Assembly: GCA_038087875.1 (NCBI GenBank)
Contig: CM075990.1
Coordinates: 18,044,001 to 18,108,000, forward strand
Length of the DNA stretch: 64,000 bases
Source: Malacoraja senta
Taxonomy: Eukaryota
Direction: 5' to 3'
Shown in pieces: positions 1-33,042 of this stretch. A program made the position numbers and the translations under genes. The notes beneath the pieces were generated by a model. It did not search any database and was not told the DNA's origin. It was given only the letters and a program-made list of their open reading frames with translations. Each line of letters begins with the position of its first letter. Within the stretch, counting starts at the first letter, position 1.

Positions 1-792
1 CTTTCTTCACTGCCTGCTGCACCTGCATGCCTACTCTCAATGACTGGTGTACCATGACACCCAGGTCTCGTTGCATCTCTCCTTTTCCTAATCGGCCACC
101 ATTCAGATAATAGTCTACTTTCCTGTTTTTGCCACCAAAATGGATAACCTCACATTTATCCACATTATACTGCATCTGCCATGCATTTGCCCACTCACCC
201 AGCCTATCCAAGTCACCTTGCAGCCTCCTAGCATCCTCCTCACAGCTAACACTGCCCCCCAGCTTCGTGTCATTCGCAAACTTGGAGATGTTGCATTCAA
301 TTCCCTCGTCCAAATCATTAATATATATTGTAATTAGCTGGGGTCCCAGCACTGAGCCTTGCGGTACCCTACTAGTCACTGCCTGCCATTCTGAAAAGGA
401 CCCGTTTACTCCTACTCTTTACTTCCTGTCTGCCAGCCAGTTCTCTATCCAAATCAATACTGAACCCCCAATCTCGGTCCTAAAGGATTTCCCCCTAATC
501 CTTAAACTGTGACCCCTTGTTTTGGACTTCCCCATTTACTCCTACTCTTTGCTTCCTGTTTGCCAGCCAGTTCTCTATCCACATCAATACTGAACCCCCA
601 ATACCATGTGCTTTAGGTTTGTATACTAATCTCTTATGTGGGACCTTGTCGAAAGCCTTCTGAAAGTCCAGATACAACACATCCACTGGTTCTCCCCTAT
701 CCACTCTACAAGTTACATCCTCGGAAAATTCTATAAGATTCGTCAGACATGATTTACCTTTCGTAAATCCATGCTGACTTTGTCCAATGATT

Positions 793-3527: not shown

Positions 3528-3789
3528 CTCCTTCTTTCGTCTCTCCCTCTGCAGTGTTTTGCGTAGCCTCCTCTCCTCAGCCTCCTCGCCGAAGACTCTC
3601 GAGCCAAAGACTCACACTTTTCTCACAGGGCACTTCCCTCACAAGGCCGCTCCCTCACTGCTGCTCCCTAAGAGCAGTCTTGCTTATATTGACTGATAAA
3701 TTGCCTAATTTACCAATTTACAATCCAAATTCCTCAGTTTTCAACTGTTTTCCCCGCTTTGACTCACTTCTCTCCTCCCTCTCCTCTGA

Positions 3790-4008
3790 CTGGTGGAACT
3801 TGTTCTCACCCTCAACAACTCTTTTGACCACTCTTGCTTTCTTCAAGATAAAGCTGTATCCACATGGGCCCCAGCTATGCCTGCTTTTTTGTTGAACAGT
3901 CTTTGTTCAAAATGTACATTAGCACCTTCCCTCAACTCTTTCTCCACTACACCAATGCCTGCATCCATGCTACTCCTGCATCCATGCAGAACTTGTGGAT
4001 TTCATTGG
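3790..4008 (+). mobile_element. Decayed Penelope-like RT fragment
   Basis: ELVLTLNNSFDHSCFLQ matches ELVLTLNNFSFDSSHFLQ of the PLE at 50552-51412. Confidence 0.75.
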
Positions 4009-4157
4009 TAGGTTAGTACTTTTAATTGGTTTGGTATATTGTAAATTGTCCCTAGTATGTGTAGGATAGTGTAGTGTGCAGGGATCGCTGGTCGACGCGG
4101 GCTCGGTGGGCCAAAGGGTCTCTTTCTGCACTGTATCTCTTTAAATTCTAAACTCTA
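4009..4157 (+). mobile_element. HE1-like V-SINE, 3' part
   Basis: gtaaattgtccctagt...ggtgggccaaagggtc...ctgtatctct, homologous to the SINE at 59366. Confidence 0.75.
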
Positions 4158-4173
4158 CTTTCCTCAAATGCAC

Positions 4174-4345
4174 AATTGGACGGGCCTGCAGTGCAGCAGG
4201 TCACCACACGGTGGGGGTGTTGACCACAAATTGGACGGGCCTGCAGGGCGGCGGATCACCACACGGTGGGAGTATTGACCACAAATTGGATGGGCCTGCA
4301 GTGCGGCAGATCACCACACGGTGGAAGTGTTGACCACAAATTGGA
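4174..4345 (-). repeat. 55-bp minisatellite (~3 units), inverted relative to the copies at 13728 and 21862
   Basis: Reverse complement of unit caggcccgtccaatttgtggtcaacactcccaccgtgtggtgatccgccgcactg. Confidence 0.9.
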
Positions 4346-4529
4346 GCGACCTGTTATGTGAATATACTGCACATTGGGAGCGCTGTCTACAAATTAGATA
4401 TTGTGCTCTCTACTGCAAAATGGTTATTTATTGCTCTGTGACCCTTTACCTTTCCCCGTAATGCACCCATTGCCCAAATGCCAAACTTAGTAAAAGCCCT
4501 GAAACCAGGGAAGATTTGGGATGAAAATC

Positions 4530-4726
4530 AAGGAACTGCAGGTGCTGGTTGACAAAAAAAGGCACAAAGTGCTGGAGTAACTCAGCCGGTCAGGCAGCAT
4601 CTGTGAGAACATGGATAGGTGACGTTTCAGAGTGCTGGAGTAACTCAGCGAGTCAGGCAGCATCTGTGGAGAACATGGATAGGTGACGTTTTACAGAGTG
4701 CTGGAGTAACTCAGTGGGTCAGGCAG
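4530..4726 (-). repeat. Tandem ~66-bp units derived from a Penelope pLTR 3' segment
   Basis: agagtgctggagtaactcagcgggtcaggcagcatctgtggagaacatggataggtgacgtttc, ~2.5 copies. Confidence 0.85.
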
Positions 4727-4883
4727 GATGCCCATAGTAAAGAGTACAGGTTTGGCAGGCAACTCAGAGTTCACTGTTTGTGTGCAGAGTTTGATGCCCA
4801 TAGTAAGAGTTACAGCATTGGGCAGCTCATTCAGGGTGTTCACTGTTTGTGTGAAGTGTTGTCTCTGATATAGCTGGCATGTT

Positions 4884-7386
4884 TTAGTAGATATTAGTAG
4901 TAAGCACAAGGTAGTGATTGTGGGAGATTTCAATTTTCCACACATAGACTGGGAAACATTCTGTAAAAGGGCTGGATGGTTTGGAGTTTGTAAAATGTGT
5001 GCAGGATAGTTTTTTGCAGCAATACATAGAGGTACCTACTAGAGAAGGGGCAGTGCTGGACCTCCTGTTAGGAAATGAGATAGGGCAGGTGGCGGAGGTA
5101 TGCGTCGGGGAGCACTTCGGGTCCAGTGATCACAATACCATTAGTTTCAATATAATTATGGAGAGGGTCAGAACTGGACCTAGGGTTGAGATTTTTGATT
5201 GGAGAAAGGCTAACTTTGAGGAGATGTGAAAGGATTTAAAAGGAGTGAATTGGGACATGTTGCTTTATGCGAAGGATGTAGAAGAGAAATGGAGGACATT
5301 TAAGGGTGAAGTACAGAATCTTTATGTCCCTGTTCGGTTGAAAGGAAATAGTAAAAATTGGAAAGAGCCATGGTTTTTAAGGGAAATTGGTCACTTGGTT
5401 TGGAAAAAGAGAGAGATCTACAATAATTATAGGCAGCATGGAGTAAATGAGGTGCTTGAGGAGTATAAAGAATGTAAAAAGAATATTAAGAAAGAAATTA
5501 GAAAAGCTAAAAGAAGATATGAGGTTGCTTTGGCAAGTAAGGTGAAAGTAAATCCAAAGGGTTTTTACAGTTATATTAATAGCAAAAGGATAACCAGGAA
5601 TAAAATTGGTCCATTAGAGAGTCAGAGTGGACAGCTATCTGCAGAGCCAAAAGAGATGGGGGAAGATATTGAACAATTTCTTTTCTTCGGTATTTACCAA
5701 GGAGAAGGATATGGGATTATATGAGGTAAGGGAAACAAGCAGAGTAGCTATGAGATTCAAAGAAGAGGAGGTGCGGACACTTTTGAAAAATATGAAAACG
5801 GATAAGTCTCCAGGTCCTGACAGGATATTCCCTAGGACATTGAGGGAAGTTAGTGTAGAAATAGCAGGGGCTATGACAGAAATATTTCAAATGTCATTAG
5901 AAACGGGAATAGTGCCGGAGGATTGGCGTACTGCGCATGTTGTTCCATTGTTTAAAAAGGGTTCTAAGAATAAACCTAGCAATTATAGACCTGTTAGTTT
6001 GACGTCAGTGGTGGGCAAATTAATGGAAAGGATACTTAAAGATAATATATATAAGCATCTGGATAAGCAGGGTCTGATTAGGAACAGTCAACATGGATTT
6101 GTGCCTGGAAGGTCATACTTGACTAATCTTCTTGAATTTTTCGAAGAGGTAACTAGGGAAATTGATGAGGGTAAAGCAGTGGATGTTGTCTATATGGACT
6201 TCAGTAAGGCCTTTGACAAGGTTCCTCATGGAAGGTTGGTTAAGAAGATTCAATTGTTGGGTATTAATGGTGGAGTAGCAAGATGGATTCAACAGTGGCT
6301 GAATGGGAGATGCCAGAGAGTAATGGTGGATGGCTGTTTGTCAGGTTGGAGGCCGGTGACTAGTGGGGTGCCTCAGGAGTCTGTGTTGGGTCCACTGTTG
6401 TTTGTCATGTACATCAATGATCTGGATGATGGTGTGGAAAATTGGATTAGTAAGTATGCGGATGATACTAAGATAGGTGGTGTTGTGGATAATGAAGTAG
6501 ATTTTCAAAGTCTACAGAGAGATTTAGGCCATTTGGAAGAGTGGGCTGAAAGATGGCAGATGGAGTTTAATGCTGACAAATGTGAGGTGCTACATCTCGG
6601 CAGGACAAATCAAAATAGGACGTACATGGTAAATGGTAGCGAATTGAGGAATGCAGTTGAACAGAGGGATCTAGGAATAACTGTGCATAGTTCCCTGAAG
6701 GTGGAATCTCATGTAGATAGGGTGGTAAAGAAAGCTTTGGGTGTGCTGGCCTTTATAAATCAGAGCATTGAATATAGAAGTTGGGATGTAATGTTAAAAT
6801 TGTACAAGGCATTGGTGAGGCCAATTCTGGAGTATGGAGTACAATTTTGGTCGCCTAATTATAGGAAGGATGTCAACAAAATAGAGAGAGTACAGAGGAG
6901 ATTTACTAGAATGTTGCCTGGGTTTCAGCAACTAAGTTACAGAGAAAGGTTGAACAAGTTAGGTCTTTATTCTTTGGAGCGCAGAAGGTTAAGAGGGGAC
7001 TTGATAGAGGTCTTTAAAATTATGAGCGGGTTAGACAGAATGGACGTGGATAAGCTTTTCCCATTGAGAGTAGGGAAGATTCAAACAAGGGGACATGACT
7101 TGAGAATTAAGGGACAGAAGTTTAGGGGTAACATTAGGGGGAACTTCTTTACTCAGAGAGTGGTAGCTGTGTGGAATGAGCTTCCAGTGGAAGTGGTGGA
7201 GGCAGGTTCGATGTTATCCTTTAAAAATAGATAGGATGGGTATATGGACGGGAAAGGAATGGAGGGTTATGGTCTGAGTGCAGGTAGATGGGACTAGGGG
7301 GAAGTAAAAAAATAAAATAAAAATAAAAAGTGTTCGGCGCGGACTTGAAGGGCCGAGATGGCCTGTTTCCGAGCTGTTATGGTTAT
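4884..7386 (+). mobile_element. 5'-truncated HER1-like (CR1-clade) LINE with 5-bp TSD atgtt
   Basis: APE C-terminus plus RT (YADDTK) in ORFs 4981, 5245, 5627..7234; 3' end gggccgagatggcctgtttcc resembles HE1 SINE tail; atgtt at 4879-4883 and 7387-7391; empty site in paralogue near 13180. Confidence 0.9.
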
Positions 7387-7739
7387 ATGTTGCTGTGCCA
7401 GTTTGATTATGAAAATAGACACATTTGAATTTCACTGTGCCTTAATTGGTACATGTGACGATAAACTGACCTTGAAACATTGGTCACAGCGCGCAAAACC
7501 CAGAGACAGACCCCACGCACCCAATATCTATCCCCCTCACTGTCCCCACCCTGACCAACAGCCCCAGGTACAGGCAGAAACTCACTACTAAATAGAGACA
7601 CAAGTACATCGCAGTGGTCCCAGTTAAACTCCTTCAAGTAGGCCCAGACCACAACTTTAGTGAATAAACCCTAACGCGGGGGAGGGGAAATGTAATCTTT
7701 AAACTAAAGTGGGCCCCAAGCTGAGAGAGGCTGAGCCCA

Positions 7740-7840
7740 ATTAGAGAAAACAATTGTTAATCTTTCCCAAACCTTCATCCACACTGAAGCCCAAGAGAAG
7801 GTTCTAAACAGGGGCCTTACCTTTGTACCAACTCCATAAC
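7740..7840 (+). mobile_element. Penelope-like ORF N-terminal remnant
   Basis: Translates IVNLSQTFIHTEAQEKVLNRGLTFVPTP; related copy at 12126-12746 split by a solo LTR. Confidence 0.65.
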
Positions 7841-8032
7841 CATATTTACATAGACCAAGTTATATACAAAACAAACCAATGTCAGTTCAAATATCTGGAG
7901 AAACACACCATGACAAACCAGATACTACTTTAACTGACAAAGAAATATTTTGAATTAAATGAGACGTACAAGTAAAGGAACAGTAGTGGAGTTTGGCCCA
8001 GTTTATGCAACATTTGGCAGAATGGGGAAGAC

Positions 8033-8186
8033 CGTCACATTTGTCAGCATTAAACTCCATCTGCCATCTTTCAGCCCACTCTTCCAAATGGCCTAAATCT
8101 CTCTGTAGACTTTGAAAATCTACTTCATTATCCACAACACCACCTATCTTAGTATCATCTGCATACTTACTAATCCAATTTTCCAC
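8033..8186 (-). mobile_element. Inverted fragment of HER1-like RT at the 5' end of the CR1 insertion
   Basis: Near-identical reverse complement of 6433-6587 (ENWISKYADDTKIGG...ADKC). Confidence 0.9.
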
Positions 8187-10778
8187 GCAGTGGAAAGGAA
8201 GGACATTAGCTTGGAGGATGTGGAATCGGTATGGGTAGAGCTGCGAAACACTAAGGGGCAGAAAACGCTGGTGGGTGTTGTGTACAGGCCACCTAGCAGT
8301 AGTAGTGAAGTTGGGGATGGCATCAAACAGGAAATTAGAAATGCGTGCAACAAAGACAAAACAGTTATAATGGGTGACTTCAATCTACATATAGATTGGG
8401 TGAATCAAATTGGCAGGGGTGCTGAGGAAGAGGATTTCTTGGAATGTATGCGGGATAGTTATCTAAACCAACATGTGGAGGAACCAACGAGAGAGCAGGC
8501 TATTCTAGACTGGGTATTGAGTAATGAGGAAGGGTTAGTTAGCAGTCTTGTTGTGCGTGCCCCCTTGGGCAAGAGTGACCATAATATGGTTGAGTTCTTC
8601 ATTAGGATGGAGAGTGACATTGTTAATTCAGAAACAACGGTTCTGAACTTAAAGAAAGGTAACTTTGAGGGTATGAGACGTGAATTGGCCAAGATTGACT
8701 GGCAATTAGTTCTAAAAGGGTTGACGGTGGATATGCAATGGAAGGCATTTAAAGACTGCATGGATGAACTACAAAAATTGTTCATCCCAGTTTGGCAAAA
8801 GAATAAATCAGGGAAGGTAGTGCATCCGTGGATAACAAGGGAAATCAGGGATAGTATCAAAGCAAAAGATGATGCGTACAAATTAGCCAGAAAAAGCAGC
8901 ATACCAGAGGACTGGGAGAAATTCAGAGACCAACAGAGGAGGACAAAGGGCTTAATTAGGAAAGGGAAAATAGATTATGAAAGGAAACTGGCAGGGAACA
9001 TAAAAACTGAAAAACATAAAAGGTGGACCAATTGTATAACTACTTTGGTTCCGTCTTCACTAAGGAAGACATAAATAATCTGCCGGAAATAGCAGGGGGC
9101 CGCGGGTCAAAGGAGATGGAGGAACTGAGTGAAATCCAGGTTAGTCGGGAAGTGGTGTTGGGTAAATTGAATGGATTAAAGGCCGATAAATCACCACGGC
9201 CAGATAGGCTGCATCCCAGAGTACTTAAGGAAGTAGCTCCAGAAATAGTGGATGCATTAGTGATAATTTTTCAAAACTCCTTAGATTCTGGAGTAGTTCC
9301 TGAGGATTGGAGGGTAGCAAACGTAACCCCACTTTTTAAGGAGGGAGGGAGAGAGAAAACGAGGAATTACAGACCAGTTAGTCTAACATCGGTAGTGGGG
9401 AAACTGCTAGAGTCAGTTATTAAAGATGGGATAGCAGCACATTTGGAAAGTGGTGAAATCATTGGACAAAGTCAGCATGGATTTACAAAAGGTAAATCGT
9501 GTCTGACGAATCTTATAGAATTTTTCGAGGATGTAACTAGTAGAGTGGATAGGGGAGAACCAGTGGATGTGTTGTATCTGGACTTTCAGAAGGATTTCGA
9601 CAAGGTACCACATAAGAGATTAGGTTACAAACTTAAATCACACGGTATTGGGGGTTCAGTATTGATGTGGATAGAGAACTGGCTGGCAAACAGGAAGCAA
9701 AGAGTAGGAGTAAACGGGTCCTTTTCACAATGGCAGGGAGTGACTAGTGGGGTACCGCAAGGCTCAGTGCTGGGACCCCAGCTATTTACAATTTATATTA
9801 ATGATCTGGACGAGGGAATTGAAAGCAACATCTCCAAGTTTGCGGATGACACTAAGCTGGGGGGCAGTGTTAGCTGTGAGGAGGATGCTAGGAGACTGCA
9901 AGGTGACTTGGATAGGCTGGGTGAGTGGGCAAATGTTTGGCAGATGCAGTATAATGTGGATAAATGTGAGGTTATCCACTTTGGTGGCAAAAACGGGAAG
10001 GCAGACTATTATCTAAATGGTGGCCGATTAGGAAATGGGGAGATGCAGCGAGACCTGGGTGTCATGGTACACCAGTCATTGAAAGTAGGCATGCAGGTGC
10101 AGCAGGCAGTGAAGAAAGCGAATGGTATGTTGGCCTTCATAGCAAGAGGATTTGAGTATAGGAGCAGGGAGGTTCTACTGCAGTTGTACAGGATCTTGGT
10201 GAGACCACACCTGGAGTATTGCGTACAGTTTTGGTCTCCAAATCTGAGGAAGGACATTATAGCCATAGAGGGAGTGCAGAGAAGGTTCACCAGACTGATT
10301 CCTGGGATGTCAGGACTTTCATATGAAGAAAGACTGGATAGACTTGGCTTATACTCGCTAGAATTTAGGAGATTGAGAGGGGATCTTATAGAAACGTACA
10401 AAATTCTTATGGGGTTGGACAGGCTAGATGCAGGAAGATTGTTCCCGATGTTGGGGAAGTCCAGGACAAGGGGTCACAGCTTAAGGATAAGGGGGAAATC
10501 CTTCAGGACCGAGATGAGGAAAAACTTTTTCACACAGAGAGTGGTGAATCTCTGTAACTCTCTGCCACAGAGGGTAGTTGAGGCCAGTTCATTGGCTATA
10601 TTTAAGAGGGAGTTAGATGTGGCCCTTGTGGCTAAGGGGATCAGGGGGTACGGAGAGAAGGCAGGTACGGGATACTGAGTTGGATGATCAGCCATGATCA
10701 TATTGAATGGCGGTGCAGGCTCGAAGGGCCGAATGGCCTACTCCTGCACCTATTTTCTATGTATCTATGTATCTATGT
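8187..10778 (+). mobile_element. 5'-truncated CR1 LINE (APE part + RT + 3' UTR with (CTATGTAT)n tail)
   Basis: ORFs 8112..9074 and 9023..10678 ending GYGEKAGTGY; internal deletion near 9011. Confidence 0.95.
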
Positions 10779-11013
10779 CTAACCCTGGCAGACTCTTCCT
10801 GCATCAGAGGACCCAGTCTTTGGAGATCCTGGGTGGAATCTAACACTAATTGGTCACCCCTTTAGAAAGGAACAGAGGAGATGAAATGGATTCTGGCAAC
10901 AGACACAAGCATACTAAACCAAATATAGATTTAGACCAATTCCAAACAAAGCTACAGTTGGGTGAATGGAAGGGGCAAGATTACTTAATTGTAATGATTT
11001 AAACACAAGTGTC

Positions 11014-11105
11014 TGAAGAAGGGTTTCGGGCCGAAACGTTGCCTATTTACTTCGCTCCATAGATGCTGCTGCACCCGCTGAGTTTCTCCAGCATTTTTGT
11101 GTACC
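11014..11105 (+). mobile_element. Penelope pLTR mini-insertion with hammerhead-like core; TSD tgtc
   Basis: (c)tgaagaagggtttcgggccgaaacgtt...cagcatttttgtgtacc; absent in paralogue near 63620. Confidence 0.8.
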
Positions 11106-11552
11106 TGTCATGAACATTAAACTACTTTTCCTGTAACAGCAGCCAACTAGGATTACTTTAACCAGGGAATGTAACCTGGTCCAAAACAAAGTCCTGGAGG
11201 TACTTGGCAGATCAGGCACCATCTACCCGACCACAAAGGGAATGGACAGATGCTGTAGTTTCCTGTTGGGACCCTTTCAGACTGATGGAGTCGGGCAGAG
11301 AAAGTGGGAAAGAGGTGGGAGCAGGACAAAGCCTGTTATGTGATTAGTGGATACAGGGGAGAGGGTGATGGGTTGTGACATTGGCTAGAGGTGACAAGAA
11401 GACAAAAGGTGCAACAGATGAGAAGAGTGAAATGTAAAGCTGGAGGGAAGGATACGGGTGGAAGGGGATAGAGTGAAATACGAGACTGGTTTGGGAGGTG
11501 AGCATACACAGGGAAGGAGGAGACCAAGGTGTTGAGGGAAGTGTTCACATCA

Positions 11553-11747
11553 GGGTGGGGGTGCAGGGAAAAAGGGGGTTCCCATCACCAAGGTGGGGGG
11601 CGGTGCAGGGAAAGAGGGGGTTCCCATCACCAGGGTAGGGGTGCAGGGAAAGAGGGGGTTCCCATCACCGGGGTGGGGGTGCAGAAGGGGTTCCCATCAC
11701 CAGGGTGGGGGGGGGGGTTCAGGGAAAGAAGGGGTTCCCATCACCAG
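11553..11747 (+). repeat. G-rich ~38-bp minisatellite (~5 units)
   Basis: Unit gggtgggggtgcagggaaagagggggttcccatcacca; inverted paralogue at 62236-62820. Confidence 0.9.
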
Positions 11748-12158
11748 TATGCTGATTTCCCACCTCCATGCCACATTTCCCTTTTATCCCCTCCCATGTC
11801 CCATTCACCCATAAACCTCCCTCTGGCTTCATCTTCCACACCTCTCCCCTTCTTATCCAACATGTTTTTATCACTTTCACCTCTGGCCTTTGTCACTTAT
11901 TCCATCCATCTGCCAATCACCCACCCCCACATGCCAGGCTTTGTCCCACCCCCACTTTCCATCTTTCTCTTCCTACTCCAGTCTGTAGGTTTCCAACCCA
12001 AAATGCCTTCTGTCTATTTCCCCCACAGATGCTGCCTGACCCTCAGAGTTCCTCCAGCACTTCTCCTCAACATTCCAGCACCCTGAAATACAAGGAACGT
12101 GACCACAAAGCAATTAGGAAAAGACATTGTTAATCTTTCTCAAAGATTTATCCCCAAT

Positions 12159-12693
12159 TGTTATGAATCCCGAAAGCAGGTACTTCAGAGTCGCGTAACA
12201 TAAGTCAAAAACCAGGTTTACGTTCAAAAATAGTTTAATTATTTATTAACACACCAAAACCCAAACCTGATTCAAACAACCCAGACAAGGATGAATGGAT
12301 TAACAAACAACTTAAAGGTGCTCAGGCCAGTCACATGATGGACCGTCGAACCCGAGGCTCTAACCCTGCCTAAAAGAAAGCTATCCCTGAAACAAAATAC
12401 CGATAACGTCTAAGGACAGCCCAATTCAATATTTGGTATTACATAATGATGGAATTACACGAAGTTCTATGCCAAGTGGCCGGGCCTTTCACAGCTCACA
12501 CCAGCACAACCTCACGAGGCAGGGTCGTCACCGAAAGAGAAAGAACTCTGGGAAATCTTCCATTTATACTGGGGATGAGTCAGCCGTCACCTGACGCAGC
12601 CTGGCCAATCAGGTACAGGATCCTTCCAGCCTGCACTTGGGGAAGAAACAGAGGTTAATACATAACATTGACCAGGAGGGGGAGCGTGTCACA
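12159..12693 (-). mobile_element. Solo LTR (535 bp) with 5-bp TSD ccaat
   Basis: TG...CA termini; ccaat at 12154-12158 and 12694-12698; minus-strand TATAAA (~12563) and AATAAA (~12243); removal rejoins the PLE motif IVNLS...LNKGLIFIPSP. Confidence 0.85.
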
Positions 12694-13282
12694 CCAATGA
12701 AACCACGAGAGGGTCTAAACAAGGGCCTTATCTTCATACCATCTCCACAAAGACTAGATTAGATAGACTTGGTTATAGCAAAATAAAATCACTTTAATGA
12801 TTGAAATCTCCTGACATCCTTGATCACACCCTCTTTGACAAGCAGTACTTGGAACAGCAAGTTGACAAAGCCCATCTATCACAAACCATAGAAAACTGGG
12901 GACATTAGAAGATCTCCAAAGACCTTGGCACATCAACCAGAAACAAGTAGAATAACTGTAGAGGGAGAAACAGCAACAGGTGAGAAGATTCTACATTCAA
13001 CTCAAAATATCAAACACTGGATGGACAGGGCCTGGAAAAATAACTCTAGGCCCAATGTTTCAAGGTCAGTTTATCGTCACATGTACCAATTAAGGCACAG
13101 TGACATTCAAATGTGTCAGCAGTAGTGAATCCTACAGGGTAGAATACATTGACTATTTTCATAATCAAACTGGCACAGCAACATGCCAGCTATATCAAAG
13201 ACAACACTTCACACAAACAGTGAACTCCCTGAATGAGCTGCCCAATGCTGTAACTCTTACTATGGGTCAAACTCTTACTATG

Positions 13283-13545
13283 TGACTCCCTGAGTTACTC
13301 CAGCCCTCAGTGAAACGTCGCCTATCCATGTTCTCCACAGATGCTGCCTGACCCGCTGAGTTACTCCATCACTCTGTGAAACGTCGCCTATCCATGTTCT
13401 CCACAGATGCTGCCTGACCCGCTGAGTTACTCCAGCACTCTGTGAAACGTCACTTATCCACGTTCTCCACAGATGCTGCCTGACCCGCTGAGTTGCTCCA
13501 GCACTTTGTGCCTTTTTTTTTAAACCAGCACCTGCAGTTCCTTGA
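13283..13545 (+). repeat. Tandem 66-bp pLTR-derived units (~3.5)
   Basis: gtgaaacgtcgcctatccatgttctccacagatgctgcctgacccgctgagttactccagcactct repeated. Confidence 0.88.
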
Positions 13546-13727
13546 TTTTCATCCCAAATCTTCCCTGATTTCAGGGCTTTTACTAAATTTGGCATCTGGG
13601 CAATGGGTGCATTACGGGGAAAGGTAAAGGGTCACAGAGCAGTAAAGAACCATTCTGCAGTAAAGAGCACATTATCTAATTTGTAGACAGCGCTCTCAAT
13701 GTGCAGTGAATTCACATAACAGGTCGC

Positions 13728-13982
13728 TCCAATTTGTGGTCAACACTCCCACCGTGTGGTGATCTGCCGCACTGCAGGCCCATCCAATTTGTGATCAACA
13801 CTCCCACCGTGTGGTGATCTGCTGCACTGCAGGCCCGTCCAATTTGTGGTCAACACTCCCACCATGTGGTGATCTGCCGCACTGCAGAGGCCCGTCCAAT
13901 TTGTGGTCAACACTCCCACCGTGTGGTGATCCGCCGCACTGCAGGCCCGTCCAATATGTGGTCAACATTCCCACCGTGTGGA
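13728..13982 (+). repeat. 55-bp minisatellite (~4.5 units)
   Basis: Direct tandem unit as at 21862. Confidence 0.9.
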
Positions 13983-13984
13983 TT

Positions 13985-14582
13985 AAGAAAGAAGTGCACA
14001 TGCTGGAAAAATCGAAGGTGGACAAAAATGCTGGAGTAACTCAGTGGGTGAGGCAGCATCTATGGAGAGAAGGAATAGGTGACGTTTCAGGTCGAGACCC
14101 TTCTTCAGACTGAAGTTGGGGGGGTGGGGGTGCGGGATAAAGAAAGGAAGAGGCAGAGACATTAGGCTGTGGGAGAGCTGGGAAGGGGAAGGAGGGAGAA
14201 AGCAAGGACTACCTGAAATTGGAGAATGGGAAGATGAGGCCAGTGGTGGGATCCCGTTGGAGGGGGCGAAAATGTCGGAGGATTATCCGTTTTATGTGAC
14301 GGCTGGTAGGGTGGAAGGTGAGGACATGGGGGACTCTGTACTTGTTACGAGTAGGGGGATGGGGAGTAAGAGCGGAACTGTGGGATATAGAGGAGACCCT
14401 GATAAGAGCCTCATCTATAGTAGAAGAGGGGAACCCCCATTCCCTAAAGAATGAGGACATCTCTGATGCCCTGGTTTGTAACACTTCATCCTGGGTGCAG
14501 AGGTGGCCAGTGTAGTCCAGATAGCCATGGGCGTCAGTGGGTTTGTAGTAGATGTCGGTCAGTAGTCTGTTACCGGTGATAG
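13985..14582 (-). mobile_element. Internally deleted Penelope 3' remnant with pLTR
   Basis: LLTDIYYKPTDAHGYLDY...PHVLTFHPTS; pLTR ctgaagaagggtctcgacctgaaacgtc on minus strand. Confidence 0.85.
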
Positions 14583-17172
14583 ACAATAGATAATAGACGC
14601 CAGAGGAGGCCATTCGGCTCTTCGAGCCAGCACCGCCATTCAATGTGATCATGGCTGATCATCCCCAATCAGGACCCCGTTCCTGCCTTCTCCCCATATC
14701 CCCTGACTCCGCTATCTTTAAGAGCCCTATCTAGCTCTCTCTTGAAAGCTGCCAGAGAACCGGCCTCCACCGCCCTCTGAGGCGGAGAATTCCACAGACT
14801 CACAGCTCTCTGTAAGAAAAAGTCTTTCCTCGTCTCCAATCTAAATGGCTTACCCCTTATTCTTAAACTATGGCCCCTGGTTCTGGACTCCCCCGACATA
14901 GGGAACATGTTTCCTGCCTTTAGCGTGTCCAAACCGTTAACAATCTTATATGTTTCAATGAGATCCCCTCTCATCCTTCTAAACTCCAGAGTGTACAAGC
15001 CCAGCCACTCCCTCTCAGCATATGACAGTCCTGCCATCCCTGGAATTAAACTTGTAAACCTACGCTGGGCTCCCTCAATAGCAAGAATGTCCTTCCTAAA
15101 ATTAGGGGACCAAAACGGCACACAATACTCCAGATGTGGTCTCACTATGGCTCTGTACAACTGCAGAATGACCTCTTTGCTCCTATATTCGATTCCTCTT
15201 GTTATAAAGGCCAACATGCCATTGGCTTTCTTCACTGCCTGCTGTACCTGCATGCTTACTTTCATAGGCTGATGTACAAGGACCCCTAGATCCCGTTGTA
15301 CTTCCCCTTTTCCCAACTTGGCGCCATTTAGATAATAATCTGCCTTCCTGTTTTTGATACCAAAGTGGATAACCTCACATTTATCCGCATTAAACTTCAT
15401 CTGCCATGCATCTGCCTACTCCCCCAACCTGTTCAAGTCACCCTGCATTCTCATAACATCCTCCTCACAGTTCACACTGCCACCCAGCTTTGTGTCATCT
15501 GCAAATTTGCTATTGTTACTTTGAATCCCTTCATCCAAATCATTGATGGATATTGTAAATAGCTGGTACCCCACTAGTCACTGCCTGCACCCGTTAATCC
15601 CTACTCTTTGTTTCCTGGCTGCCAACCTCTTCTCTATCCATGTCAGCACTCTACCCCCAATACCATGTGCCCTAATTTTGCCCACTAATCTCCTATGTGG
15701 GACCTTATCAAATGCTTTCTGAAAGTCCAGGTACACTACATCCACTGGCTCTCCCTTGTCCATTTTCCTAGTTACATCTTCAAAAAATTCCAGAAGATTA
15801 GTCAAGCATGATTTCCCCTTCGTAAATCCATGCTGACTCGGACCGATCCTGTTACTGCTATCCAAATGTTCGGCTATTTCATCTTTTATAATTGACTCCA
15901 GCATCTTCCCCACCACCGATGTCAGGCTAACTGGTCTATAATTCCCTGTTTTCTCTCTCCCGCCTTTCTTAAAAAGTGGGATAACATTAGCTATCCTCCA
16001 ATCCACAGGAACTGATCCTGGGTCTATAGAACATTGGAAAATTATCACCAATGCACCCACGATTTGTAGAGCCACTTCCTTAAGTACCCTGGGATGCAGA
16101 CCATCAGGCCCTGGGGATTTATCAGCCTTCAGTCCCATCAGTCTATCCAACACCATTTCCTGCCTAATGTGGATTTCCTTCAGTTCCTCTGTCACCCCAG
16201 ATCCTCTGGCCACTACTGTATCAGGAAGATTGTTTGTGTCCTCCTTTGTGAAGACAGATCCAAAGTACCTGTTCAACTCATCTGCCATTTCCTTGTTCCC
16301 CATAATAAATTCACCTTTTTCGGTCTTCAAAGGTCCAACTTTGGTCTTAACTAATTTTTTTCTCTTCACATACCTAAAGAAGCTTTTACTATCCTCCTTT
16401 ATATTCTTGGCTAGCTTACCTTCGTACCTCATCTTTTCTCCCCGTATTGTCTTTTTGGTTATCTTCTGTTGTTCTTTAAACATTACCCAATCCTCGCTTC
16501 CCGCTCATCTTTGCTACGTTGTACTTCTTCGCTTTAATTTTTATTCTGTCCCTGACGTCCCTTGTCAGCCATGGTCGCCCCTTTCTCCCCTTGGAATCTT
16601 TCTTCCTCATAGGAATGAACTGATAGACATAGACAAAGAAAATAGGTGCAGGAGTAGGCCATTCGGCCCTTCGAGCCAGCACCGCCATTCAATATGATCA
16701 TGGCTGATCATCCAACAGTATCCCGTACCTGCCTTCTCTCCATAACCCCTGATCCCCTTAGCCACAAGGGCCACATCTAACTCCCTCTTAAATATAGCGA
16801 ATGAACTGGCCTCAATTACCTTCTGTGGCAGAGAATTCCAGAGATTCACCACTCTCTGTGTGAATCTCTGTGTCCGAAAAGACTTCCCCCTTATCCTTAA
16901 ACTGTGATCCCTTGTTCTGGACTTCCCGAACATCGAGAACAATCTTCCTGCATCTAGCCTGTCCAACCCCTTAATGTGATCCTGCACCTTCTGTATTATT
17001 CTTAGAATTTTTGTTTTTTTTTGTTCCACTGTCATCCCTGCTAGTGTATCTTTCCAGTCACCTTTGGCCAACTCCTCCCTCATGGCCCCATAGTCCCCTT
17101 TATTCAACTGCAACACTGTGACCCCCGATCTACCCTTCTCCCTCTCCAATTGTAGATTAAACCTGACCATGT
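14583..17172 (-). mobile_element. 5'-truncated CR1 LINE with a nested CR1 3' fragment (~16625-16976, tgat duplicated)
   Basis: ORFs 14669..15400 and 15578..16483; paralogue near 25975 lacks the nested piece. Confidence 0.92.
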
Positions 17173-17316
17173 TACTCTGAGCAGGTATTAAATAAACGCT
17201 TTGATGATTGCAGTCCTTTGTCACAGAACTCCTTAGTGAGATTTTTTAACCATTTGAGTTCCACTTATATATGATTCTGTGTTTCAAAAGCAGTCGTCGA
17301 GGCCACATCCACCGGA

Positions 17317-18293
17317 GATGTGAATGGGGTACAGACACATATGTGAATGGGGTACAGACACAGATGTGAATGGGGTACAGACACATATGTGAATGGGGTA
17401 CAGACACATATGTGAATGGGGTACAGACACAGACACAGATGTGAATGGGGGTACAGACACAGATGTGAATGGGGTTACAGACACAGATGTGAATGGGGTA
17501 CAGACACAGATGTGAATGGGGTTACAGACACAGATGTGAATGGGGTACAGACACAGATGTGAATGGGGTACAGACACATATGTGAATGGGGATACAGACA
17601 CAGATGTGAATGGGGTACAGACACAGACACAGATGTGAATGGGGGTACAGACACAGATGTGAATGGGGTTACAGACACAGATGTGAATGGGGTACAGACA
17701 CATATGTGAATGGGGGTACAGACACAGATGTGAATGGGGTACAGACACATATGTGAATGGGGTTACAGACACAGATGTGAATGGGGTACAGACACAGATG
17801 TGAATGGGGGTACAGACACAGATGTGAATGGGGTTACAGACACAGATGTGAATGGGGTACAGACACAGATGTGAATGGGGTTACAGACACAGATGTGAAT
17901 GGGGATACAGACACAGATGTGAATGGGGATACAGACACAGATGTGAATGGGGATACAGACACAGATGTGAATGGGGTACAGACACATATGTGAATGGGGG
18001 TACAGACACAGATGTGAATGGGGTACAGACACATATGTGAATGGGGGTACAGACACAGATGTGAATGGGGATACAGACACAGATGTGAATGGGGGTACAG
18101 ACACAGATGTGAATGGGGTACAGGCACATATGTGAATGGGGTACAGACACAGATGTGAATGGGGATACAGACACAGATGTGAATGGGGTACAGACACAGA
18201 TGTGAATGGGGATACAGACACAGATGTGAATGGGGGTACAGACACAGATGTGAATAGGGGTACAGACACAGATGTGAATGGGGTACAGACACA
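17317..18293 (+). repeat. 23/24-bp minisatellite (~41 units), possibly coding (D/Y)VNG(G/V/D)TDT
   Basis: Unit gatgtgaatgggg(g/t/a)tacagacaca. Confidence 0.95.
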
Positions 18294-18529
18294 TCTGCAG
18301 GCTGGACAGGTATACAATTAAAAAAAGAAAATTGTGAGCTTAGATTTGACTTTAATTATTTGTTATTCACACCCTTATAAGATTATTAAATTCATCCTCC
18401 TTCCATTCGTAATATTTATGTGTTTCAAAAATCATCCATGATCTGACAGCAAAGACATAAAACATTTAGCCAGTTTAGTTTTGTCAATTGCAGCTTTTGA
18501 GGGTCTGTATTGCTTTTGCATTTAACCAT

Positions 18530-19420
18530 ATAACAATTACAGCACGTAAACAGGCAATCTCGGCCCTTCTAATCCATGCCAAACACTTATTCTCCCCTAG
18601 TCCCATCTACCTGCACTCAGACCATAACCCTCCATTCCTTTCCCGTCCATATACCTATCCAATTTATTTTTAAATGATAAAATCGAACCTGCCTCCACCA
18701 CTTCCACTGGAAGCTCATTCCACACAACTACCAGTCTCTGAGTAAATAAGTTCCCCCTCATGTTGCCCCTAAACATCTGTCCCTTAATTCTCAAATCATG
18801 TCCTCTTGTTTGAATCTTCCCTACTCTCAATGGAAAAAGCTTATCCACGTCAACTCTGTCTATCCCCCTCATAATTTTAAAGACCTCTATCAAGTCCCCC
18901 CTTAACCTTCTGCGCTCCAAAGAATAAAGACCTATCTTGTTCAACCTTTCTCTGTAACTTAGTTGCTGAAACCCAGGCAACATTCTAGTAAATCTCCTCG
19001 GTGCACAAAAATGCTGGAGAAACTCAGCGGGTGCAGCAGCATCTATGGAGCGAAGGAAATAGGCAACGTTTCGGGCCGAAACCCTTCATCAGTAAATCTC
19101 CTCTGTACTCTCTCTATTTTGTTGACATCTTTCCTATAATTTGGCGACCAAAATTGTACTCCATACTCCAGAATTGGCCTCACCAATGCCTTGTTCAATT
19201 TTAACATTACATCTCAACTTCTATACTCAACGCTCTGGTTTATAAAGGCCAGCACACCAAAAGCTTTCTTTACCACCCTATTCCACCTTCAGGGAACTAT
19301 GCACAGTTATTCCTAGATCCCTCTGTTCAACTGCATTCCTCAATTCGCTACCATTTACGTCCTATTTTGATTTGTCCTGCCAAGATGTAGCACCTCACAT
19401 CTAATGTAACACCTCACATT
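18530..19420 (-). mobile_element. HER1-like LINE 3' fragment
   Basis: ORF 18597..18983 nearly identical to the C-terminus of 5627..7234. Confidence 0.9.
19000..19090 (-). mobile_element. Hammerhead-like pLTR mini-insertion, 13-bp TSD agtaaatctcctc
   Basis: Minus strand (ct)gatgaagggtttcggcccgaaacgtt; TSD at 18987-18999 and 19091-19103. Confidence 0.88.
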
Positions 19421-19442
19421 TAAATCCATCTTTTGTTTTCAG

Positions 19443-19619
19443 AGACAGTCAATGACATCAGCAATCACTTACACAGACCTCCATCCTGCTGGATCAATGT
19501 TATCTTTATTAGCTTCAGATTATGTTGATTACAGTCTTCCTCCAAGAGACACACCGACATCGGCAGCAAGAACGGTTACAGCATGGACCTGGGGCCTATT
19601 GATATTCTCTTTCATGTAG
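19443..19619 (+). other. Candidate terminal coding exon of an unknown host gene (hydrophobic C-terminus)
   Basis: Acceptor ttttgttttcag; non-TE sequence; followed by AT-rich UTR-like tract with ATTAAA (~19692). Confidence 0.4.
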
Positions 19620-20386
19620 ATGTCATGTGTATGTTAAAGTTAATAGTTTGCACTTTGGTTTTTGTTTGAAGTTCTCACATTGTTAAGGTTAATTAAAATT
19701 TTGCGTTAAAGTCTTTTTTCAAAATATATTTGCTTCTCACAATTTGTTACCTTTAATGCACAATGAAAGAAATTCTTTTTTAAAACTAGAATTGATGTCT
19801 GAAATCATTATTTTTATATTAGTCCATCATGTCATCACTTAAATCTCATATTTCATTTATCATATATTTAGATAACTGAAACGCACCAAATCAAGGAAGG
19901 AATGCAATGTATTCCCATTTTAACCTCACAATTATTGTTATGAATGAAAACAGACACAAGCTCTGCATTTTAAAGGAATATTTATTGCACCTTCACACAA
20001 ACAGTGAACTTCCTGACTGAGTTGCCCCAATGCTGTAACTCTTACCCTGGGCATCAAACCCTGTACACAAACAGTGATCTCACTGACTGAGCTGCTCATT
20101 GCTATACTTTTTATTATGGGCATCCTGCCTGACCCGCTGAGTTACTCCAGCACTCTGTGAAACGTCACCTATCCATGTTCTCCACAGATGCTGCCTGACC
20201 CGCTGAGTTACTCCAGCATTTTATCTTTTGAGCAAGAGCATCCAAATATCTTTACAAATCTCGACAACAGTCTGTCCAGTCCAAAGCTCAATGAATGACC
20301 ACTCCACACATCACACAGATTCCTTTCACCTGAAAGTCCTTCATAAGAACTCATAATAAACAAGCTTTGATTAGGAAAGTTAGGAA

Positions 20387-21861: not shown

Positions 21862-22333
21862 TCCAATGTGTGGTCAACACTCCCACCGTGTGGTCATCTG
21901 CTGCACTGCAGGCCCATCCAATTTGTGGTCAACACTCCCGCCGTGTGGTCATCCGACACACTGCAGGCCCGTCCAATTTGTGGTCAACACTCCCACCGTG
22001 TGGTGATCCGCCGCACTGCAGGCCCGTCCAATTTGTGGTCAACACTCCCACCGTGTGGTGATCCGCCGCACTGCAGGCCCGTCCAATTTGTGGTCAACAC
22101 TCCCACCGTGTGGTGATCTGCTGCACTGCAGGCCCGTCCAATTTGTGGTCAACACTCCCACCGTGTGGTGATCTACTGCACTGCAGACCCGTCCAATTTG
22201 TGGTCAACACTCCCACCGTGTGGGCATCCGCGGTACTGCAGGCCCATCCAATTTGTGGTCAACACTCCCACCATGTGGTGATCTGCTGCACTGCAGGCCC
22301 GTCCAATTTGTGGTCAACACTCCCACCGTGTGG
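21862..22333 (+). repeat. 55-bp minisatellite (~8.5 units)
   Basis: Direct tandem repeats; translation cycles through all three frames. Confidence 0.92.
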
Positions 22334-26260: not shown

Positions 26261-26502
26261 ACACTGCAAACGGTTGTTGGTGGTGGTAACTGCTTTGAAA
26301 TGAAGTGGTAGGTAACTGCACTTGAATTCGGTGGCCTTGCACCCTGCTTGAAATGGCATGAAACTGCATTTGAATTCGGTGGCCTTGCACCCTGCTTGAA
26401 ATGGAATTTGAAGGGATAGCCATGAGTCAACTGCTCGACCACCAGCCGTGAGTGAGCTGCCAGCACATCAGGCTTGAGTGACTGAGCTGCCACCCCAAGA
26501 AT

Positions 26503-26824
26503 TCATTTGGCCCACAGCGGAGGGTGATGGCTAGGCGCAGGCCTGGTTCCTGTGGCTCTCATATAGGTGTCTTTTGTTTCAGCAGAGGGCCCATGTTTGT
26601 CATTAAACAGGTCAGGGGGTATTCTTGTAACGTTTTTAAAAGCAGACAAATCCTCCTCATGCAGCACATTTATCAGGTTCTCATACTGTCCAAGCCTGAA
26701 TCTTCTTTGCAAGAGGGGCTTCATCCACTGAGACCTCTTCTTGTGCTTCCTCTTCACCCTTGTTCTTGCCCATCAGCCGTTACGCTGCAGAAGCAAAAGT
26801 CCTGCTGCAAGTGGGACAGCCCCT
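26503..26824 (-). mobile_element. PIF/Harbinger remnant: TIR end and transposase N-terminus
   Basis: WMKPLLQRR..LGQYENL...ED...FKNVTRIPP.LF...KDTYMR; terminus ggggctgtcccactt; similar end at 28640-28655. Confidence 0.7.
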
Positions 26825-27319
26825 TTAGTCAGCCACATTCGCCTCATTCTTCCCTCAGAATCTTTCTTCCTCTTTGGGATGAAAAGATCCTGCAACTTCT
26901 AAATTATTCTCAGAAACTTCTGCCATTGCTGTTCCACAATCATTCTTGCTTGGATCGCTTTGTACTCAACAATAGCCACCTCCTTACTTATGCCTCTACA
27001 GTTACCTTGACTCTACAGTAATGCCATCACATCTGATATCATCTTCTCAAACTGCAGGTTGAATTTTTTTCATATTATGTCACAAATTCCTAGGGGTTCC
27101 TTTACCTTAAGCTCCCTAATCAAATCCAGTTCTTGCACAACACCGAATCCAGAATTGCCTTTTCCCTGGTAGGCTCAACCACAAGCCGCTCTAAGAAGCC
27201 ATCTCGCAGGCACACTACAAATTCCATCTCTTGGGATCCAGTACCAGCCTGATTTTCCCAGTCTACCTGCATATTGAAATTCCCTGTAACATGGCCTTTC
27301 TTACATGCTGATTGTAAAT

Positions 27320-28468: not shown

Positions 28469-29906
28469 CCTGCTGTAATTTGTACTCTTCATCCTGACTC
28501 GTGAGCGTCACATCAGTGGTACGGAAGGTATTGAAGAGGATTCTTCAAGATAGGATTTACTCCCATTTGGAAGAAAATGGGCTAATTAGGGATAGCTAGC
28601 ATGGCTTTGTACATGGCTGGTCGTCTTATTAACTTGTTTGAGTGGGACAGGCCCTTAAGAGAGCAAAAGAGCCGAGAGACCATCTCTGCTCATACTATAA
28701 CTCAGCACTGGGCAGTGTGCCGTGGCAGAACTAAGTCATTTGAGGGACAGCAGACAACAGGTACACCAATGCATGAGGAGAACCCACATGCAGACAAGAT
28801 CAGTGAATGTTATGTTTACTTTAAATCCTGCTGACTATGTTTGATTTCAGTTTGTGTGGATTTTTATTTTCATTTTTGTGTCAAGAATTTCATTGCAGAT
28901 GTCTGTTCATAAAGTAGTATTTATCATGCAGCTGCTGGTCTGATTAGTGTAGGTAGATCTGCAAACATAGCCCTTGAATTCATTGCCTTGTCTGTTTTAT
29001 TGTCAGAATGTAGGCTGGTGCTTCATTTGTCAGCTGAATGATAAGAAATACTGGAAAAACGTCTCTGTGTTTCATTTGCTAATTGACATGTACGGTAAGC
29101 CCTATTGCAAACCACCGTTGTTCGCTGTGGTGCTCCATTTATCAAGATGTGTAAAAATGGCCTTTATTTATTGAACAAGATGAATAAAGACTGTTTCACA
29201 TTCACAGTGCGGTTTGTCTTATTTTCTGAGGTTAAATTATTTTACATTTAAAAGGCACAGCAAATGATTGTGAGATGTAAGATGTGAGTAGATCGCATCC
29301 TCTATTTGGTGTTTCATGATGAAGGAAATAGTACATTAAAGTCATGATACTATGGAATTATATTAAAATGAACAAACAGTGAGAATCAAATGGATTCTTA
29401 AGGTGTTTAACTATCACCCACTACAAAATGTGGGAGTTTGCAAATAAAATGAAAACAATCTCAAACAGGGAATAAACACCATTAACATACAAATAAGAAT
29501 CTACATCAAAAGATAAACTTTACTACAGACCCATGTCTCTGAGCCTCTCTCTCTCTCCCTTCATCCACAGCTCTTTTTGTTTCACGGAGACAGCCATCTC
29601 CATATCCAGAAGCCAATGCTGTTAAGGCTGTTACAGCAGGTGCAGATGTGTGAAAGTGAGTAGGGTTCTCTGGAAAAGAATTAGGAAGTACATGTTAAAA
29701 GCTTTTTAGCAGACCATAAAAAGGTGCAGTTGGGTTATTCCAGATTTTACTGTGAACTTTATGAAAATGTATTATCTTTTAGGGCAAATCATGGACTATT
29801 CTTGCATCACATCACTCAAGGAAGATAATTAGTTTAATGGCCTTATGCGGTTGTGAATGAAAATTATTTAAACTACAATCTAACACATAATAATATGCTT
29901 TGAATT

Positions 29907-30737
29907 GTATAATGTGGATAAATGTGAGGTTATCCACTTTGGTGGCAAAAACAGGAAAGTAGACTATTATCTGAATGGTGGCCGATTAGGAAAAGGGGAG
30001 ATGCAATGAGACCTGGGTGTCATGGTACACCAGTCATTGAAAGTGGGCCTGCAGGTGCAGCAGGCAGTGAAGAAAGCGAATGGTATGTTAGCATTCATAG
30101 CAAAAGGATTTGAGTATAGGAGCAGGGAGGTTCTACTGCAGTTGTACAGGGTCTTGGTGAGACCACACCTGGAGTATTGCGTACAGTTTTGGTCTCCTAA
30201 TCTGAGGAAAGACATTCTTGCCATAGAGGGAGTACAGAGAAGGTTCACCAGACTGATTCTTGGATGGCAGGACTTTCATATGAAGAAAGACTGGATAGAC
30301 TTGGCTTGTACTCGCTATAATTTAGAAGATTGAGGGGGATCTTATAGAAACTTACAAAATTCTTAAGGGGTTGGACAGGCTAGATGCAGCAAGATTGTTC
30401 CCGATGTTGGGGAAGTCCAGAACAAGGAGTCACAGTTTAAGGATAAGGGGGAAATCTTTTAGGACCGAGATGAGAAAAACATTTTTCACACAGAGAGTGG
30501 TGAATCTCTGGAATTCTCTGCCACAGAAGGTATTTGAGGCCAGTTCATTGGCTATATTTAAGAGGGAGTTAGATGTGCCCTTGTGGCTAAAGGTATCAGG
30601 GGGTATGGAGAGAAGGCAGGTACAGGATACTGAGTTGGATGATCAGCCATGATCATATCAAATGGCGGTGCAGGCTCGAAGGGCCGAATGGCCTACTCCT
30701 GCACCTATTTTCTATGTTTCTATGTTTCTATGTTTCT
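29907..30737 (+). mobile_element. CR1 3' fragment (copies at ~33797-34632 and ~37655-38488)
   Basis: YNVDKCEVIHFG...GYGEKAGTGY, (TTCTATGT)n tail. Confidence 0.92.
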
Positions 30738-32973
30738 AACATCTCCAGAGGGCTCAACGGTGATACCTGGCGTCCCAGTTACACCCCCCTCAATTCCGTA
30801 CCCTCCTGTATTCATCTTGCAGCCCAATTGTTGTCTCTCCTTTGATCCAAATCCAATTGCTGATTTTTTCTGCAGAATTTGATAATGATTTGATTGCTTG
30901 TTGGAGGGAGCGACCCCTCACCCCCATTTTCTTTAATAGCCTGGTCATAGATGTAGCAACAAATCCCCTGCATCCCACCTCGACAGGGAAAATCTTGGTC
31001 TTCCAGCCATTCTGGGAAGCTTCAGCTGCCAGTTCAGAGTACTAGGTCTTTTTACTCTCATAAGCTTCTTCAACACCATCTTCCCATGGAACTGTCAATT
31101 CCACAACGTATGCCAACTTGGCTGTTGTGGACCACAGGACCATGTCTGGCCGAAGTGTTGTAGCCACAATGTCTGGGGGAAACACACGCCTTTTTCCTAA
31201 GTCCACTTCCATTTTCCAATCCCAAGCAGGCTGCAGAATGCTTGCATCCATTGATGTTATCTGGTGCTCTGGATGTTGGCCTGCTGGTACAAATGTTGTG
31301 AAATGGACATTTCCTGCCGATGTTGGTGGGGAAGCATTTGTGATCGTTCGCCTCTGTTCAAGGATTGATGCCAGCTGTTTGAGAACTTGGTTATGCCGCC
31401 AAGTAACGTCCTTGGCCGAGGCTCATAGTGCATCCTGTTAAAATGTGCCTTAGTGATGCAGGTGCTTGGCAAAGGGAGCAAGTGGGGTCTTCTCCGAACC
31501 ACTGCTTCAGGTTCTGGGGTGAGGGTAGAACATAAGTCGCTCTGATGACAAAACTGAGCCGAGATCCTTCCATTTGCCAGATGTCACGCCAGCTGAGTTT
31601 CCTCTTTTCCAGGCTCTTCCAGTTAGTCCATTGGTCCTGCTTGGCCATTGAGACGGCCTTGGCATGTCGCTCTGCCTCCTCCCGTCTTCTCACCTCCTCC
31701 ACCACAAGCCGTCTCTTCTGCACTGATGTTGCCTTGTGCCATTGAGGAGCTTTTGGGACGAGCCCGAGCCCGGCTTCTCCCGTGTTGGTCTTGACCAACC
31801 ACATCCCGGAAATGAAGAGCAGACTTAGCACTCTGAACGGCTTCAGATGGGGCCCACTTCCTCCCCGTTGCCACACTGGGGGCCGCTGTTCGAATAACAG
31901 TATCTTCAGATTCAGTGAGGGTCATGACCAACCTTGCTTTAGTGCATTTGAACTCTTCCACAAGTCCTGCAATGGGTAATTCCAATTTGCCACTCCCATA
32001 CAGTCCGACAGCACTTAAGCATCGTGGAAGTCCAAGCCACTGTTTCACATGTGTGCTGATCATTCTTTCCAGCTTTTCCACTTTGTTGATGGGGATTTCA
32101 TACATAGTTAAAGGCCACATGATTCTTGGTAGTATGCCAAATTGAAGCACCACAGCTTGAGTTTTCCTGGTAGCAAGGTCTTGTTGATGCGAGCTACGTG
32201 CATGATGGTATCCTTTTTCAGTTGTTCAAACTGCTCGGTGTCCTTGAGCTTTGCATCATACCATCGGCCCAAACTCTTCACTGGCATTTCTGAAACAGTT
32301 GGAACAGGTATTCCGTCAATATGACTATCTTTGATCCTTGACTTGACCTTTGACAATGGAGATGCTTCTGCACTTACTGGGTTTAAACTTCATCCTTGCC
32401 CATGTGATGTTTTGATGAAGTTTTTCCAGATGTCTCTTGGTGCAGGGGATAGTTGTTGTTAGTGTTGTTATATCATCCATAAAGGCTCGTACCGGTGGCA
32501 ATCGCTGACCACACTGTAGCCGTTTTCCTCCCACAACCCATTTTGATGCTCTGACAATGAGCTCCATTGCCATAGTGAAGGTCAATGGGGAGATGGTGCA
32601 CCCCGCCATGATGCCTACTTCCAGTGCTTGCCACGCTGTGGTGAAGTCTGATGTTGTGAGACAAAATTGCAGATCCTGGAAGTCGTTTTTACCAGATTTG
32701 TTATTGTTGCAGGCACATGAAAGAATTCAGAAGCAGTCTACAGTAGTGAATGAGGAACTGATCCATAGGTGTTGGCCAGATCGTGGAACAAGACATGCAG
32801 ATTCTTTCGTTCTTTCTTATCAGTCTGGATTTGATGCCATATGATGCTTGTATGTTCAAGGCATCCCGAGAAGCCTGCTATGCCAGCCTTTTGGATTGAC
32901 GTATCAGTGAAATGGTTTTGTTTCAGATACTTTAAATCTTTTCGCCACCACACTGACAAAGATCTTGCCCTCT
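30738..32973 (-). mobile_element. HERO-like non-LTR retrotransposon (RT + zinc knuckle + restriction-like endonuclease), decayed
   Basis: GIMAGCTISP, AFMDD, CSLCQAPASLRHILTGC, RPDMVLWS...VELTVPWE. Confidence 0.85.
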
Positions 32974-33042
32974 ATAATAATAATGGATGGGATTTATATA
33001 GCGCCTTCTAATACTCAAGGCGCTTTACATCGCATTATTCAT
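32974..33042 (-). mobile_element. L2-like LINE/SINE 3' tail (copy at ~36869-36937)
   Basis: Minus strand gtaaagcgccttgagtattagaaggcgctatataaat...(att)n. Confidence 0.6.

Follow-up and report, generated by a model that had tools for sequence, protein, structure and literature searches.

The closest described counterpart of a minisatellite in an exon is the VNTR of MUC1, a coding repeat exon with frameshifting units, as described in two reports (PMC5843638, PMC12458345). The locus analyzed here lies in a 64,000-bp stretch of DNA, which as a whole is called the window, and it resembles the MUC1 array in that tandem units lie in an exon (here a candidate exon), a difference of one base is enough to shift the frame, and the array is hard to sequence. 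It differs in that MUC1 units are 60 bp long and normally in frame, whereas 19 of the 41 units of our array break the frame, two other organisms have no array, and no expression was shown. Several of its traits are those of an ordinary vertebrate minisatellite, namely, a unit of 23 to 24 bp, a length of about 1 kb, interspersed variants, conserved edge units, and restriction to a lineage. Unlike an ordinary minisatellite, the array lies between splice-like signals and over half of its units keep the frame.

Acidic matrix proteins and innate receptors of cartilaginous fish are poorly catalogued. SIRP/CEACAM-like tails are examples of comparable inhibitory receptor tails encoded by multigene families, and GPI-anchored proteins with a Ser/Thr-rich stalk are a known class. 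The locus resembles the latter in that a 58-codon frame downstream of the array closes with small residues and then a hydrophobic stretch; it differs in that this tail is not conserved, the frame being changed in the high-depth contigs of two other organisms (A and B) by an extra base at position 19597. In skates, the MDIRs (CD300/TREM/pIgR-like) are described as multigenic activating and inhibitory receptors (PMC3031540). The locus shares with these receptors and with SIRP/CEACAM-like tails its multiple copies and the order of a short candidate exon and a candidate last exon, the latter beginning with I-x-Y-x-x-L and containing further tyrosines. It differs from them in that neither an Ig domain nor a transmembrane exon was found in the window, in that there was no sequence match, and in that the motif alone is not significant.

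Parsing of positions 17317 to 18293 (forward strand) revealed a minisatellite of 41 head-to-tail units with 91% matches, comprising 22 units of 24 bp, 17 units of 23 bp, and 2 units of 29 bp, so that tandem units in the 10- to 100-bp range with variant types, as expected of a VNTR, are present. The 24-bp units were of three types, with five G residues (n = 9), with T after the G run (n = 6), or with A after the G run (n = 7). The preliminary description had stated that all units with T or A at this place are 24 bp long, that additional insertions are of 6 bp, and that GGGG versus GGGGG is the only variant that shifts the frame. The complete parsing bears this out for 13 of 13 units with T or A, for both 29-bp units, which combine four G residues with a 6-bp insert, and for the G run across the 41 units, 19 of which contain four G residues. 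Nine units, absent from that description, start with TAT and specify Tyr instead of Asp. Also missing from it is the fact that the first and last units both combine four G residues with a following T. The unit was confined to the array, which contained 41 of the 44 matches found in the window with up to two mismatches (2.5 expected by chance), and the order of the units displayed no higher-order pattern above that of shuffles.

The array splits a nonrepeated island into two parts (17175 to 17315 and 18298 to 18526). Positions 17175 to 17293, unique by self-BLAST of the window and free of transposable elements (TEs), resemble the end of an intron with AG dinucleotides permitting exon starts at 17291 and 17294, and the candidate exon would consist of a 5′ unique part entered in phase 1 (17294 to 17316), the array, and a 3′ unique part (18294 to 18309) extending to the donor and covered by aligned contigs from organisms A, B, and G. 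The splice signals, whose strength the preliminary description did not mention, were only moderate according to a rough frequency matrix, with the two acceptors in the top 11% and top 25% of 4,339 AGs and the donor after 18309 in the top 6.5% of 3,697 GTs. The acceptor AGs, the donor, and the flanks of the array were as initially described. Phase 1 at both ends, as also claimed, held for entry at either AG; at the other end it did not hold for the 1,016-nt exon as assembled and was restored only when all 19 four-G units were corrected. The frame was correctly reported to stop after the first unit (TGA at 17344 to 17346), and any internal 23-bp unit brings a TGA into frame in the following unit. 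With this stop and 19 frameshifts, the array lacks the open frame expected of a coding repeat exon. No exon was found upstream of the array in positions 1 to 17175, about 17 kb of the window.

The four-G units could be genuine or could result from undercalling of homopolymers during sequencing. The four-G state was tied to a variant located 10 bases away, namely, the base (T or G) after each unit. Four G residues were present in each of the 10 units with T at that place, whereas none of the 22 units of 24 bp was followed by T (P = 8e-5). Comparison with the nine five-G units only gave a Fisher P value of 0.0098, and omission of both edge units gave 0.023, at variance with the independence from distant variants expected of artifacts in short runs. 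Three of the four combinations of G-run state and following base were present, a pattern expected from descent along a tree and not from random undercalling. The variants nest as such a tree, leading from four G plus T at both edges to four G plus G and then to 24-bp units plus G with their G, T, and A forms, an arrangement that would make the 23-bp units real. Like errors were not detected elsewhere in the window, where none of 25 G or C runs of at least five residues was frameshifted in 11 long LINE frames (13,143 bp), although these frames had been picked for being open and polishing may differ inside arrays. The per-run error was bounded near 11% by this control versus the 67% required, and at an error rate of 18 in 27, the finding of no frameshifted run would have a probability of 1e-12. 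The best-matching read run contained 0.39 of the words of the window and differed from it at fixed sites. The four-G units are therefore probably not sequencing errors, judging from their pattern in the assembled sequence.

Contigs of four runs were aligned to positions 18247 to 19990 only, at 80% likeness; runs with small word shares were left out. The observations below concern the matches listed, which comprise 12 of the 21 rows for indels, 40 of the 248 rows for substitutions, and 24 of the more than 134,000 pieces. Both non-TE islands were multicopy in organisms A and B. Single contigs of run X3 (organism B) reached depths of 524 and 651, in comparison to about 19 for other contigs, suggesting roughly 15 to 35 copies, depending on what a depth of 19 stands for; summed contig depths are not copy numbers. 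Paralogues of 80 to 90% identity were also present. In run X1 (organism A), the last two units of the array were covered about 15 times as deeply as the flank, indicating that organism A has many such units and that arrays are not private to the window assembly. No indel or substitution deciding the presence of 23-bp units in organism A was present among the rows listed, and word shares did not discriminate between the unit lengths in this organism.

Organisms B and G differed from organism A. Two X3 records (16 and 17) and record 8 of run X17, which is probably a DNA run, aligned from exactly 18280 and had 58 to 143 unmatched bases upstream. This start point indicates that organisms B and G have no array upstream of 18280, because an array would have aligned further. 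Array copy number thus differs between genomes, as is usual for minisatellites, the comparison being between organisms and not within a species. A single 24-bp unit of any type is predicted to give an alignment start at 18280 and a single 23-bp unit a start at 18270. The ancestral state was most likely one 24-bp unit in a 63-nt exon with phase 1 at both ends, as suggested by alignment start points and not by the letters of the unit, and the reading frame chosen in the preliminary description is probably the ancestral one of the family.

The donor is followed by intron-like non-TE DNA (18310 to 18495), which is multicopy in organisms A and B; the depth-524 contig displayed 3 differences over positions 18280 to 18425. 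Positions 18496 to 19416 are occupied on the reverse strand by a LINE fragment, itself containing a short repeat nested in it, with 89 to 92% identity to a LINE of the window (6580 to 7389). A depth-486 X1 contig joined 18495 directly to 19417, indicating that the LINE piece is an insertion in this copy and that the intron is about 210 nt long without it. Farther downstream is a last-exon-like piece (19443 to 19619, forward strand), not mentioned in the preliminary description, which begins at an acceptor ranking in the top 0.2% of the 4,339 AGs. Entry at 19443 in phase 0 leads to the 58-codon frame and entry in phase 1 to a 27-codon frame ending at 19526 to 19528. Given the local composition, a run of 58 open codons in a single frame has a probability of 0.018, uncorrected for the number of frames examined. 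The single ITIM-like motif (19464 to 19481) matches a consensus that is also matched by 13% of shuffles of the 58 residues. The hydrophobic C terminus (mean hydropathy of 2.3 over the last eight residues) is present in the window frame and shifted in contigs of high depth from both organism A and organism B. The adjoining positions (19620 to 19990) are AT-rich, resemble a 3′ untranslated region with an ATTAAA at 19692, and are multicopy in the same two organisms.

Copies of the last-exon-like piece differed by frameshifting indels at 19457 (7 nt), 19571 (1 nt), and 19597 (1 nt), and indels of 7, 1, 1, and 4 nt were found for this region in high-depth contigs. The 7 nt at 19457 were missing from most of the X3 depth (938 plus 333 of 1,427) and kept in X1 and the window. 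The extra base at 19597 occurred in high-depth contigs of organisms A and B and that at 19571 in X1, so that the 58-codon frame is broken at different places in the high-depth contigs of the two organisms. The density of indels among the rows listed was about equal in the 58-codon piece and its flanks. The abundance of nontriplet indels argues against selection for the frame in many of the copies. At 19571 to 19573, contigs of organisms A and B differ in the length of a G run, indicating real variation of this type in the family outside the array.

A 24-bp unit without the 7 nt (organism B) and a 23-bp end unit with the 7 nt (window) both reach the 58-codon frame. The two other pairings end early, and the observed pattern is expected by chance in one of three cases. 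Unit length and the 7-nt state look like frame compensation; record 1 of X1, which has one extra base, perhaps that of a 24-bp unit, may contradict this reading, all contigs of that organism having kept the 7 nt. Correcting all 19 four-G units leads to the 27-codon frame because of the 7 extra nt, which are shared by the X1 contigs. An AG within these 7 nt (19460 to 19461) could speculatively serve as an acceptor restoring the long frame; this candidate was rejected, a far stronger AG being located 19 nt upstream.

RNA and protein searches did not identify a product. No joint between 18309 and 19443 was present among the splice joints listed for runs aligned over 18247 to 19990 (donor side), and RNA run X21 had a depth of at most 1 on both pieces in the 6% of this one run, of unspecified organism and tissue, that was covered. 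For the 58-codon frame, a word search of longer proteins gave 51 candidates with none at an E value of ≤10, phmmer gave no match to 1.84 billion representatives, the ESM Atlas gave no usable match, the PDB gave none, and 599 pattern matches in JGI metagenomes included none that was confirmed. The frame at the array end gave 3,001 word-search candidates, with none at an E value of ≤10. These negatives are weak, the libraries having had no positive control for coverage of cartilaginous fish proteins. No Pfam domain of a host gene was found in 124 frames of unique window DNA, four of which had only retroelement-type or subthreshold matches, and no Ig domain or transmembrane exon was found in the window. 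Rfam gave no match, and nothing on the locus or family appeared in the literature at the level of titles and abstracts. The proposal that the array belongs to an extracellular protein, mucin-like or mineral binding, received no support from any of these analyses. If the locus is coding, the cytoplasmic tail of an inhibitory immune-type receptor is a tentative lead, with which the multiple copies in organisms A and B agree, a trait not specific to this class; a GPI-anchored or secreted stalk is an equally tentative one.

On balance, we consider it somewhat probable that a minisatellite expanded, specifically in this lineage, within a decaying copy from an unnamed multicopy gene family and that this copy is noncoding. 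The locus would be the 3′ end of one member of the family, with one short internal exon ahead of the last one. The internal exon would once have been about 63 nt long with a single unit, which slippage and unequal exchange may have amplified in the lineage of the window and probably in that of organism A. Since an internal 23-bp unit puts a TGA in frame in the next unit, the exon would no longer code, making this copy a pseudogene or pseudo-exon. The latter was one of two possibilities raised initially and is the better fit, given the seemingly real four-G units, the two organisms without the array, and the frame-breaking indels between copies. Directly observed are the array, its frameshifts, the multiple copies of its flanks, and two other organisms in which it is absent. 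In favor of this reading, two islands of spliced appearance are surrounded by DNA of which 76% is self-repeated (48,524 of 64,000 bases), mostly LINE-type elements, with reverse transcriptase or endonuclease Pfam matches in six of eight long frames. Against decay of a gene stand the lack of a listed joint from 18309 to 19443, of an upstream exon, and of a protein relative, as well as the broken 58-codon frame in organisms A and B. The lack of a listed joint and of a protein relative, together with the multicopy flanks, the weak upstream acceptor, the nontriplet indels of the high-depth contigs, and the frequency of the ITIM-like motif in shuffles, would suit islands that never coded, i.e., a multicopy noncoding segment (segmental repeat, nonautonomous element, or long noncoding RNA) hosting a minisatellite, with splice-like sites and frames due to chance. 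We regard this as possible though rather unlikely, as the donor and the top-ranking acceptor occur in the right order about 210 nt apart without the LINE, the exon with one 24-bp unit is symmetric at 63 nt, the long frame is reached from both of the state pairs observed, and paralogues at 80 to 90% identity indicate that the segment is old.

Readings in which the array is tolerated or translated fared less well than decay of the gene copy. A live gene might skip the exon or have other alleles or paralogues with short or all-24-bp arrays, the VNTR acting as an on/off or length switch. The symmetry of the ancestral exon in its 24-bp form, the 22 of 41 units that keep the frame, the depth of the array units in X1, and the fact that the 1,016-nt exon keeps the phase of a one-unit 23-bp exon (both 2 modulo 3) are consistent with such a gene. 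It appears unlikely, since skipping in this copy leads into the 27-codon and not the 58-codon frame, the 18 internal frameshifts are far from an open allele, and RNA support is lacking. A further reading, which we find quite improbable, is a recently amplified, unannotated surface protein family, in what is assumed to be a cartilaginous fish, in which the 63-nt exon became a frame-switching VNTR. A gain of 7 bases in the following exon would make up for the loss of one base from the unit, a long Asp/Thr-rich domain would be made by copies or alleles whose units are all 24 bp long, and those with a 23-bp unit would be off, providing a vertebrate parallel to repeat-driven phase variation. The remaining possibility raised by the preliminary description, that systematic undercalling of homopolymers conceals an Asp/Thr-rich repeat of about 330 residues with an open frame, is very unlikely. 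In its favor are the location of the sole frameshifting variant in a G run, the maintenance of the frame by all T or A units and both inserts, and the apparently ancestral 24-bp frame; polishing can also fail within a 1-kb array, and the evaluation here is of the assembled sequence. It would nonetheless require 18 to 19 errors in 1 kb that track a base 10 nt away while long G and C runs elsewhere stay intact, full correction ends in the 27-codon frame owing to the 7 extra nt, organisms B and G have no array, and frame-breaking indels separate the copies of the next exon that are found in contigs of other organisms.

A dead exon with a minisatellite matters little in itself and cautions annotators against "repairing" the array. 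The locus also points to an unnamed multicopy family missing from the protein databases searched. If open arrays exist in living copies, the locus would show how a repeat domain arises from a single stretch of an exon while frameshifts on the two sides of an intron compensate for each other.

Several other features of the window were recorded. A promoter-like island on the forward strand (56439 to 56658) contains ATTGG boxes at 56439, 56466, and 56475 and a TATAAA at 56509, followed by two ATGs (56564 and 56594) and, near 56652, a donor that fits the consensus. It has no Pfam match and may represent exon 1 of another gene, which could be the next member of the family. Nonrepeated islands at 26482 to 27018 and 54850 to 55000 contain splice-like signals and open frames of 60 to 180 codons with no Pfam match, and a protein-like 100-codon frame in nonrepeated DNA of the reverse strand (42148 to 42447) gave only a subthreshold Pfam match and Atlas scores below 0.9. 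An apparent tandem triplication of a ~3.9-kb unit of retroelement pieces (about 29200 to 40300) is marked by near-identical frames from 31042, 34937, and 38793 and by the same 8-bp repeat at 30705, 34600, and 38462. The same adjacent pair of retroelement frames occurs twice (43965 to 44865 and 51261 to 52374), suggesting further local duplication. Dispersed minisatellite families with units of 55 bp (4174 to 4345, 13728 to 13981, and 21862 to 22333) and 38 to 39 bp (11551 to 11711 and 62236 to 62822), together with a 32-bp array with variable C runs (58581 to 58986), indicate that the region is prone to tandem expansion.
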